Source of the DNA: Shigella phage sb3
Length of the DNA stretch: 64,000 nt
Sequence record: PQ666541
Direction: 5' to 3' (one strand)
Shown here one piece after another: positions 56,380 through 60,499 of this stretch (positions are counted from its first letter, which is position 1; each line of letters starts with the position of its first letter). A model generated the notes under the pieces. That model was not told the DNA's origin. It saw nothing but the letters and a program-made list of their open reading frames with translations, and did no database searches. Position numbers and translations under genes: made by a program.

Positions 56380-59300
56380 ATGGCTACTTTAAAACAAATA
56401 CAATTTAAAAGAAGCAAAACCGCAGGTCAACTTCCTGCTGCTTCAGTATTAGCCGAAGGTGAATTGGCTATTAATTTAAAAGACCGTGTACTTTTTACTA
56501 AAGATGACCAAGGAAATATTATTGATCTGGGTTTTGCTAAAGGCGGTAGCATTGACGGGAATGTTATTCATATAGGAAACTATAATCAAACTGGTGATTA
56601 TACTTTAAATGGCACCTTCACTCAGACAGGTAATTTTAATTTAATCGGTATTGCTCGAGTAACTCGCGATATTATTGCCGCCGGGCAGATTATGACCGAA
56701 GGCGGAGAACTTATTACAAAAAGTTCAGGTACATCACATGTTCGTTTTTTCGATAGCAATAGCCGCGAACGCGGAATCATTTATTCACCGGCTAATGATG
56801 GATTAACTACACAAGTACTTAATATCAGGGTTCAAGACTACGCCGCTGGTAGCGAAAGCACCTATGCATTTTCAGGCAATGGCTTATTTACTTCACCTGA
56901 AGTATCAGCATGGAAATCTATGTCAACTCCTCAGATTTTGACCAACAAAGTCATTACTAATAATAAATCTACAGGTGATTATGACATTTATTCGATGGCA
57001 GATAATGTTCCACTGTCTGAAAGCACTACTGCTATTAATCATCTCCGTGTCATGCGTAATGCAGTCGGTTCTGGCATTTTCCATGAAGTTAAAGATAATG
57101 ATGGAATAACTTGGTACAGCGGAGATGGGCTAGACGCTTATCTTTGGTCATTTACATGGAGCGGCGGAATTAAATCGAGTCACTCAATTTCTATCGGTTT
57201 AACACCTGGCAATAAAGATTATTCAATACTAGGACCATCTAGTATTGCTTTAGGGGATAATGATACTGGATTTAAATGGCACCAGGATGGATATTATTTC
57301 AGCGTCAATAATGGAACGAAAACATTTTTATTTAGTCCTAGCGAAACAACTAGCCTAAGAAAATTTGTAGCTGGATATTCTACTAACGGAACCGATTTAA
57401 CTACTCCTCCTACTGAAAACTATGCTCTCGCTACTGTTGTTACATATCATGATAATAACGCGTTTGGAGATGGTCAGACTCTTTTGGGATATTATCAAGG
57501 CGGTAATTATCATCATTATTTCCGCGGTAAGGGTACTACAAACATTAATACTCACGGCGGTTTGTTAGTTACTCCAGGTAATATTGATGTTATTGGCGGT
57601 TCTGTTAATATAGATGGTAGAAATAATTCTTCTACACTAATGTTTAGAGGTAACACAACTGGTAGTAGTTCAGTTGATAATATGACAATTTCCGTATGGG
57701 GTAACACGTTTACTAATCCTAGTGTAGGTAATCGTAAAAATGTCATGGAAATTTCTGACGCAACTAGTTGGATGAGCTATATTCAAAGACTTACTACCGG
57801 TGAAGTAGAAATGAACGTTAACGGTTCATTTGAATCATCTGGTGTTACTGCTGGAAATAGAGGAGTTCACACAACAGGTGAAATTTCATCTGGGGCCGTG
57901 AATGCGCTTCGCATTTGGAACGCAGATTATGGTGCCATTTTCCGTCGTTCAGAAAACAGTCTTCATATTATTCCAACTGCCTATGGTGAAGGCAAAAATG
58001 GCGATATCGGTCCACTTCGTCCGTTTAGTATGTCTTTAGATACAGGTAAGGTTGTTATTCCTGACCTAGATTTGAGTCATACAACTTTTGCTGAAAATGG
58101 TTTTATTAAATTCGGTGGGCATGGTGCTGGTGCCGGTGGTTATGATATTCAATACGTCCAAGCAGCTCCTGTTTTCCAAGAAATTGATGATGACGCGGTA
58201 AGTAAATATTATCCTATTGTTAAGCAGAAATTCTTACAAGGAAAAGCTGTTTGGTCTTTAGGCACTGAAATTAATTCCGGGACTTTTGTTTTACATCATT
58301 TAAAAGAAGATGGTTCACAAGGCCATACATCAAGATTTAATGCTGACGGTACAGTTAATTTCCCTGATAATGTTCAGGTTGGCGGTGGTGAAGCTACTAT
58401 TGCTCGAAATGGTAATATCTGGTCTGATATTTGGAAATCGTTTACTTCAGCAGGAGACACTACAAATATTCGTGATGCAATAGCTACTCGTGTTTCTAAA
58501 GAAGGCGATACGATGACCGGTAAGTTGACTTTATCTGCTGGAAATGATGCCCTTGTTTTAACTGCAGGCGCGGGTGCTTCATCGCACATCCGTAGTGATG
58601 TAGGTGGTACAGGTAACTGGTATATAGGCAAAGGCGGCGGCGATAATGGTCTAGGTTTTTATAGTTACATTACACAAGGCGGTGTATACATAACAAATAA
58701 CGGCGAAATATCGCTTTCTCCTCAAGGTCAAGGAACATTTAATTTTAATAGAGACCGCCTTCATATAAAAGGTACACAATGGGTTGCGCATAAATCTGGC
58801 GCCTGGGGTGACCAATGGGGTTTAGAAGCTCCGATATTTATAGATTTTGGTAGTGTCAGCAATGACTGCTATTATCCTATTATTAAAGGAAAATCTGGTA
58901 TTACTAACGAAGGATATTTTTCCGGCGTAGATTTTGGTATGCGACGCATTACTAATAACTGGGCACAAGGTATTATTCGTGTAGGTAACCAGGAAAATGG
59001 CCATGACCCACAAGCTATCTATGAATTCCACTCTAATGGTACTTTTTATGCCCCGAGCTTACTTAAGAGCAACAGAGTATCGGCTGGTGGTGGTGACCCG
59101 GTATGGGGTGGGCCGTGTATTGTTATTGGTGATAATGATACCGGATTAGTTCATGGTGGTGACGGCCGAATCAATATGGTTGCCAATGGTATACATATTG
59201 CAAACTGGGGCGCAGGCTATCAATCTCATCCTGGGCTTTGGGATTCAACCGGTGCTTTTTGGACAGAAGTTGGAAGAGCTATCGTTTCTCATGGGCATCT

Positions 59301-59688
59301 CGTTCAGGCAAATGATAGTTATTCAACGTTTGTCCGCGATGTTTATGTCCGTTCTGATATTCGCGTTAAAAAAGACCTTGTTAAATTTGAAAATGCTTCT
59401 GAGAAGCTTTCCAAAATTAATGGTTACACTTATATGCAGAAGCGAGGCCTAGATGAAGAAGGCAATCAGAAATGGGAACCTAACGCCGGTTTAATTGCTC
59501 AAGAAGTTCAAGCTATTTTACCAGAATTAGTTGAAGGTGACCCTGATGGTGAAGCTTTACTTCGTTTGAACTATAACGGTGTAATTGGTTTAAATACAGC
59601 TGCAATCAATGAGCATACCGCAGAAATTGCAGAACTTAAATCAGAAATCGAAGAACTTAAAGCATTAGTTAAATCATTGTTAAAATAA
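56380..59688 (+). CDS. 37: Long tail fibre distal subunit gp37, T2/T6 type, with C-terminal intramolecular chaperone domain
   Basis: 1102-aa ORF, longer than T4 gp37; the C-terminal ~120 aa ending in a coiled coil ([22 protein letters not shown]) resemble a self-cleaving chaperone domain. Confidence 0.88.
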
Positions 59689-59693
59689 TAAGA

Positions 59694-59707
59694 GGGGCTT
59701 CGGCCCC
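59694..59707 (+). terminator. Hairpin GGGGC-TTCG-GCCCC between genes 37 and 38
   Basis: Perfect 5-bp stem with TTCG loop; no T-run, so more likely an RNA-stability element. Confidence 0.35.
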
Positions 59708-59719
59708 TTGGAGGTTTAT

Positions 59720-60499
59720 ATGGCAGTAACAGGACCGTGGGTAGGATCGTCTGCAGTAGTTAATACAGGACAAAATTGGATGGGTGGCGCGGCCCAACGA
59801 TTAAGAATGGGTGCTCCATTTTGGATGAGTAATATGATAGGTCGATCTGTTGAAATAATTCACACGCTTGGAGCAGACCATAACTTCAATGGTCAATGGT
59901 TCCGAGATAGATGTTTTGAGGCAGGTAGTGCACCTATAGTGTTTAATATCACTGGAAATTTGGTATCATATTCTAGAGACGTTCCTTTATTCTTCATGTA
60001 CGGAGATACACCTAATGAATATGTTCAACTGAACATACACGGCGTAACGATGTATGGTCGTGGTGGGAATGGTTGGGCCGCTGGTGCAATTGGAGCATCT
60101 GATGGCGGTGTATGTATCCAGAATGATATAGGTGGACGTCTGCGAATTAATAATGGCGGAGCTATTGCCGGTGGCGGCGGTGGCGGCGGTGGTTATTCAC
60201 AAGCCAACAACTGGGCGGGAAAATATGTTTGTGGTGGCGGTGGCGGTCGTCCATTCGGCTTAGGCGGAAATAATGGTGCTCGATGGCCTGGTGGTAATGC
60301 TAGTTTGACGTCTCCGGGTGCTGGCGGTAATACTGGTACAGGGTATTATGCAGGTGGCGGTGGTGAAGTTGGTCAACCTGGTCAATATGCTAATCCAGGT
60401 TCTGGTTATTCAACACCTCCGACAAATCCTGGTGCTGCTGTAGCAGGATCAGCTCCAACATGGCAAAATGTTGGAGCAATATATGGTCCAAGAGTATAA
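59720..60499 (+). CDS. 38: gp38 receptor-recognising adhesin with glycine-rich motifs (T2/T6 type)
   Basis: 259 aa from the ATG; C-terminal half has poly-Gly blocks ([35 protein letters not shown]) separated by variable segments. Confidence 0.85.

Follow-up and report, generated by a model that had tools for sequence, protein, structure and literature searches.

We analysed a 64,000-nucleotide (nt) stretch of DNA from Shigella phage sb3 (sequence record PQ666541), referred to here as the window, which corresponds to the late region of a T4-like Tequatrovirus. On its + strand, g34-g35-g36-g37-g38-t occur in T-even order, as read from the open reading frames (ORFs) and with Pfam and PHROG names in agreement, and g38 is placed straight after g37, ahead of the holin gene t. 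Our subject is the pair g37 and g38, whose products, gp37 and gp38, are a long tail fibre subunit and an adhesin. An initial annotation, made from the letters alone, had set out a receptor module with a g37 start at 56380 and a g38 stop at 60499, which match the ORFs exactly, and with products of 1102 and about 259 amino acids (aa), as also found here:

56380–59688, + strand: g37, long tail fibre distal subunit precursor, 1102 aa (ORF, Pfam, PHROG)
59720–60499, + strand: g38, T2-type tail fibre tip adhesin, 259 aa (Pfam, PHROG, PDB matches)

Given the gene structure, the domains, a cleavage motif and the near-identity of homologues, this is very probably a T2-type (Tequatrovirus) distal receptor module, in which gp37 would be cleaved and then capped by gp38, and which likely binds OmpC. 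The interpretation given in the initial annotation is supported, with the location of gp38 at the fibre tip, the self-cleavage of gp37 and the choice of receptor being what we infer from close homologues.

Architecture of gp37 and gp38

The gp37 precursor, of 118.6 kDa in full, covers the whole of PHROG 1699, 'long tail fiber protein distal subunit', and is divided as follows:

56380–59352, + strand: predicted mature gp37 shaft, residues 1–991, 106 kDa (from the alignment to S16 gp37 in PDB entry 6F45)
59353–59685, + strand: C-terminal intramolecular chaperone, residues 992–1102, 111 aa and 12.3 kDa, with the Peptidase_S74 core at 992–1051 and a heptad helix at about 1076–1102
59353–59370, + strand: predicted Ser-Lys autocleavage motif S992-D-I-R-V-K997, which opens the Peptidase_S74 domain (alignment, conservation)

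A C-terminal chaperone domain was found by profile search, with residues 992–1051 matching Pfam PF13884 Peptidase_S74, 'Chaperone of endosialidase' (E = 1.1e-12; 48.4 bits, with the cut-off at 22). Residues 910–1102 align to the gp37 tip and chaperone of phage S16 (6F45 chain A, E = 4e-44), and the 14-residue stretch that holds the cleavage motif aligns over S16 RDLNVS-SDRRIKKD. S16 gp37 is cut at DLNVS^SDRRIKK, and its chaperone is reported to be released autocatalytically after trimerisation (PMC7917993). In T2 and T6, C-terminal cleavage of gp37 is followed by capping with gp38 (Trojet et al., PMC3157838). In the window, the scissile bond is predicted to be R991^S992, which would release 111 residues. 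Eight gp37 C-termini, among them those of T2, T6, PP01, AR1, Sf23, VIPECOOM01 and pSs-1, all keep the motif's R, S, D, R and K. Endosialidase work by Schulz et al. in 2010 reportedly identified the Ser and Lys of an S-D-x-x-x-K motif as a catalytic pair, and S992 and K997 would accordingly be the catalytic pair of gp37. Profile, motif and alignment thus support the self-cleaving chaperone tail that had been claimed for gp37, the cleavage itself being expected from the homologues.

The chaperone had also been described as a coiled-coil segment. A chaperone is present; however, it is the whole 111-residue S74 domain, and the putative coiled coil is only its final 25–30 residues. These residues have a heptad-like spacing of 7-3-4-3-4-3 (I1076, I1083, L1086, I1090, L1093, V1097 and L1100), and a single-sequence AlphaFold model of gp37 985–1102, with a mean predicted local distance difference test (pLDDT) score of 56.7, is confident only for the last helix (about 88–90). 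When the chaperone-domain sequence was searched against the PDB, it matched S16 and, weakly, MYRF (7DC3, E = 0.019) and a fibre (8JOV), with no endosialidase or T5 fibre chaperone structures among these matches. The putative endosialidase link of the gp37 chaperone has the Pfam family as its basis, and the weak match to the self-cleaving domain of MYRF is consistent with the known spread of the domain family.

A further element was observed inside gp37:

57631–58065 (residues 418–562), also given as 57727–58029 (450–550), + strand: stretch resembling the gp34 C-terminal trimerisation domain (Pfam PF21446, PDB 4UXE/5NXF)

This internal stretch matches PF21446 Gp34_trimer (E = 4.5e-8) and PDB entries 4UXE and 5NXF (E of about 5e-12), and hints at modules that are shared or duplicated between the proximal and distal half-fibres.

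The features of gp38 are given below, with the limits of the loop region and of the individual loops taken from the PP01 crystal paper (PMC12892980):

59720–59839, + strand: N-terminal attachment domain, residues 1–40 (PF21721; W7, W20, W35)
60074–60412, + strand: receptor-loop region between poly-Gly motifs
60074–60091, + strand: loop A
60200–60229, + strand: loop B
60269–60286, + strand: loop C
60329–60346, + strand: loop D
60392–60412, + strand: loop E
60401–60403, + strand: S228 codon TCT, at the tip of loop E

The protein falls in PHROG 2056, with residues 1–40 matching Pfam PF21721 Gp38_N (E = 1.7e-21) and residues 45–259 matching PF05268 GP38 along the entire profile (E = 3.8e-72). It also matches PDB entries 9V85, over residues 37–259 (E = 1.5e-141), and 6F45_D (E = 1.1e-52). 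Residues W7, W20 and W35 are invariant in all 18 aligned gp38 sequences; gp38 tryptophans have been described as prongs that insert into gp37 (PMC7917993). Glycine makes up 24% of the protein and 33% of residues 115–259, with runs of eight (151–158), five (172–176) and four (212–215). The same alignment shows the Gly blocks to be invariant, whereas the intervening segments differ completely in T2, T6 and VIPECOOM01, which agrees with the initial description of poly-Gly blocks separated by variable segments. The classical phages in this comparison were T2 and T6, with K3 and Ox2 outside it; the T2 and T6 adhesins have the Gly framework in common with the window and differ from it in all five loops. 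By analogy with its homologue, gp38 would fold as a β-helix and a polyglycine-II sandwich. In PDB entry 6F45, three chains of gp37 are present with a single chain of gp38, a ratio consistent with one adhesin per fibre. Nothing in the sequence contradicts a T2-type tip architecture.

Receptor loops and the predicted receptor

Among its relatives, gp38 is 99% identical to that of pSs-1, 98% to AR1, 95% to PP01, about 65% to T6 and 49% to T2. Over residues 41–259 it differs from PP01 gp38 at four positions (I46V, N80D, S228A and P257S). Loops A–D are those of PP01, and loop E reads NPGSGYS versus NPGAGYS in PP01, so that 34 of the 35 loop residues are equal. The receptor-binding domain of PP01 gp38, in which loops A–E were defined by crystallography (9V85), binds E. 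coli O157 OmpC (PMC12892980). In that work, G208 crosslinks to OmpC loop 5 and Y230 to OmpC loop 7; loop E, which is required, enters the cleft between the two; and A228, at the tip of loop E and in contact with that cleft, can be replaced by Val or Leu, but not by Asp, and cannot be deleted (PMC12892980).

By its receptor loops, the module is assigned to the PP01/AR1 OmpC-binding class rather than to the specificity of T2 or T6. The T2/T6 label of the initial annotation therefore holds for the type of module, but not for its specificity. Because the loops equal those of PP01 except for A228S, the porin OmpC is the most likely receptor of the window's gp38. Two T2-type Shigella phages, Sf22 and KRT47, are cited as OmpC-dependent in PMC12892980; literature searches, limited to the library used, found no primary paper on OmpC use by Sf22 and KRT47 or on the receptor of pSs-1.

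In the mechanism that we propose, gp37 would be synthesised as a 1102-residue precursor, whose C-terminal 111-residue Peptidase_S74 chaperone would register three chains and nucleate folding of the trimeric shaft. The chaperone would then cut itself at R991^S992 through the S992/K997 pair and depart, baring a flat tip built of three ...DVYVR strands; this shaft end, ...RDVYVR, is the predicted docking platform for gp38. A single gp38 would dock on the tip through its 40-residue N-terminal domain, using W7, W20 and W35. The remainder of gp38 would form a β-helix, followed by a polyglycine-II sandwich bearing the five variable loops at the fibre end, where loop E would reach into the cleft that separates loops 5 and 7 of OmpC.

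Alternative readings and genomic context

The genes that flank the module bear on whether it could be used. They are the following:

50659–54528, + strand: g34 (gene order, Pfam/PHROG), split by an in-frame TAA
54537–55652, + strand: g35, 371 aa (Pfam/PHROG)
55715–56371, + strand: g36, 218 aa (Pfam/PHROG)
60530–61186, + strand: holin t, 218 aa (Pfam/PHROG)

Several points weigh against a functional, OmpC-binding fibre tip, the first of which lies in g34. Codon 151 of this gene (51109–51111) is an in-frame TAA, leaving same-frame ORFs of 150 aa and 1118 aa. If the stop is true, a host without a suppressor could not support assembly of the whole fibre. The module might then be intact but idle, carried by a defective or mutant phage in which the ochre codon cuts g34 and long tail fibres cannot form. 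The corresponding codon is TTA in pSs-1 and AAA in VIPECOOM01, both with an intact gp34, and the 81-base stretch around the TAA has an identical copy in no phage record. The codon may be an ochre mutation, but a single-base error in sequencing or assembly explains it equally well. Every other fibre gene is intact, and g37 is identical over 3 kb to that of a viable phage, pSs-1. We consider an idle module unlikely.

The remaining points concern the receptor, for which the call is weaker than that for the architecture. The PP01 mutants at residue 228 covered Val, Leu, Asp and deletion, not Ser. Loop B, in which PP01 residues K168 and Y169 may touch lipopolysaccharide (LPS) (PMC12892980), may also contact LPS here. 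Moreover, S228 is carried by phages from Shigella and non-O157 hosts, and the OmpC variant recognised may differ from O157 OmpC. We compared residue 228 with the host in 15 phages whose gp38 proteins are at least 93% identical:

Ala: PP01, AR1, JY01, EC121, NBEco003, KNP5, sb1
Ser: the window, pSs-1, Sfk20, sb2, ECp13, Ec_YwIITB1
Val: sb4
Asn: Sf23

Ala is found in each of the three phages that were isolated on O157, and the sources of the Ser carriers are Shigella or E. coli other than O157. The host association is suggestive but not clean, as two Shigella phages, KNP5 and sb1, have Ala as well. Residue 228 is a natural hot spot, coincident with the site found critical by mutagenesis in PP01. 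We tentatively suggest, while leaning towards doubt, that it could be a natural one-residue host-range switch, in which Ser would shift the adhesin from the hydrophobic cleft of O157 OmpC towards the OmpC variants of Shigella and other E. coli, with Ala marking O157 phages and Val or Asn other variants. This residue is the only feature of the module that could yield a new result, a small one. Should this phage prove to have a host range unlike that of the O157 phages, residue 228 is where to look.

The same architecture could also serve a receptor that is not OmpC, or not OmpC alone, if loop B and the polar Ser that tips loop E jointly redirected binding to a different porin or to the sugars of LPS. 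In PP01, the hydrophilic Asp at the critical position 228 abolished infection (PMC12892980); this position varies between Ala, Ser, Val and Asn among near-identical gp38 proteins from different hosts; and a few changes in the variable segments of gp38 are enough to switch the receptor in T6/PST and T2/SV76 (PMC3157838). Yet Ser, unlike Asp, is small and near Ala in size, and both the near-complete agreement with the PP01 loops and the OmpC dependence cited for Sf22 and KRT47 argue for OmpC. We regard another receptor as quite improbable. The last alternative, that gp38 is a T4-type non-virion assembly chaperone and gp37 binds the receptor itself, shares with T4 the position of gene 38, but was rejected as having a negligible chance of being right: gp38 has no similarity to T4 gp38 (BLASTP best E = 17), is 259 aa rather than 183 aa long and strongly matches adhesin families (Pfam GP38 and Gp38_N) and adhesin structures (9V85 and 6F45), and gp37 resembles T4 gp37 only as far as about residue 640 and has no counterpart of the C-terminal tip domain of T4.

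The g37-g38 DNA is 99.6% identical to that of Shigella phage pSs-1 over 4120 bases, and 88–90% identical to that of the O157 phages AR1 and PP01. Positions 56500–59499, within g37, are 100% identical to pSs-1, whereas the flanks (50500–56499 and 59500–64000) are 83–98% identical; all seven g37 mismatches to pSs-1 fall in 56427–56475. Genes g34–g36 are closest to VIPECOOM01-03 (96.7–96.8%), with pSs-1 at only 93.5%, and the first 25 kb of the window are 97.4% identical to pSs-1. Since the backbone and g34–g36 diverge from pSs-1, the window comes from another Tequatrovirus, one that has the g37 cassette in common with pSs-1. From these identities, we read this fibre cassette as recombinant, its left junction lying within the first ~100 nt of g37, a conserved stretch. 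Cassette exchange of this kind is a familiar T-even pattern. Fibre-gene exchange among T-even phages is also treated in PMC3157838.

Three candidate expression signals were found around the module:

55684–55691, + strand: T4-type late promoter box TATAAATA upstream of g36, 24 nt ahead of the g36 ATG (pattern search)
59692–59709, + strand: g37-g38 intergenic hairpin GAGGGGC-UUCG-GCCCCUU with a UUCG tetraloop (folding, conservation)
59710–59714, + strand: Shine-Dalgarno GGAGG for g38, 5 nt ahead of the ATG at 59720 (read in sequence)

The pattern search for TATAAATA gave 18 matches in the window versus 8.6 expected, among them a second late-promoter box before g34, at 50617. The box at 55684 is likely the promoter of a g36-g37-g38 transcript. 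For g38, the start in the annotation of every relative is the ATG that corresponds to 59720, which gives 259 aa. The TTG at 59708, proposed by the ORF lister (263 aa), was rejected for its overlap with the hairpin's 3′ arm and with the GGAGG Shine-Dalgarno sequence.

The hairpin region folds at −13.8 kcal/mol over a 43-nt stretch, with a z-score of −1.55 that is statistically unexceptional alone. Its conservation is better evidence than its stability: the core GGGC-TT(C/T)G-(G/C)CCC is kept in pSs-1, PP01, AR1, T2, T4 and T6, with 13 of 14 columns invariant. No U-run follows the hairpin at 59692–59709, and an RNA-stabilising element is therefore more likely than a terminator. RNA-stabilising intergenic hairpins have long been known in T4, and the g37-g38 hairpin may be of that kind.

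Separately, residues 58–112 of the hinge protein gp35 (window 54708–54872) match Pfam PF15711 ILEI (E = 5.1e-8; 33.8 bits, above the curated cut-off of 27). The match spans the first 56 of the 90 profile positions, and the family name, 'Interleukin-like EMT inducer', is an unexpected one for a phage hinge protein.

Comparison with known systems

The closest known system is that of pSs-1 (NC_025829, pSs1_00255/pSs1_00256), in which g37-g38 is near-identical and gp38 likewise has S228. The two differ at two gp38 residues, N80D and P257S, and in g34, which is intact in pSs-1. In PP01, gp37 is 86% identical to that of the window and its chaperone segment 100% identical. Apart from A228 in PP01 versus S228 here at the tip of loop E, the differences between the two gather at the joint between the proteins, with eight substitutions in gp38 residues 4–19 (window 59729–59776), within the attachment domain, and gp37 tip changes clustered at residues ~940–985 (59197–59334), just before the cleavage site. 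These changes in the gp38 attachment domain and the gp37 tip are consistent with co-variation of docking partners. T2 gp37 and PP01 gp38 have been found incompatible (PMC12892980).

S16 (6F45) has the same parts, with a gp37 tip and cleaved chaperone, and a gp38 made of attachment domain, β-helix and polyglycine-II sandwich; however, its sequence is distant (gp38 E = 1e-52), its loops are other ones and its target is Salmonella OmpC. T2 and T6 have the module type, the cleavage motif and the Gly framework in common with the window, but differ in all five gp38 loops and in the length of gp37, which is 1341 aa in T2 and 994 aa in T6 versus 1102 aa here. Their receptors are FadL/OmpF for T2 and Tsx for T6 (PMC3157838).

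Residues 1–640 of the window's gp37 are 35% identical to T4 gp37, and the intergenic UUCG hairpin is common to both, but T4 gp38 (183 aa) is an unrelated chaperone, and T4 gp37 has its own receptor-binding tip and no S74 domain. Modules of the type found in the window have been known from genetics since the 1980s, and from structures of S16 in 2018 and PP01 in 2026. The system is already known genetically, structurally and biochemically, and this copy, nearly identical to that of a published genome, adds nothing new. Its value is to annotation, with OmpC predicted as the receptor and the gp37 cleavage site placed at R991^S992, and it carries little weight as a discovery.

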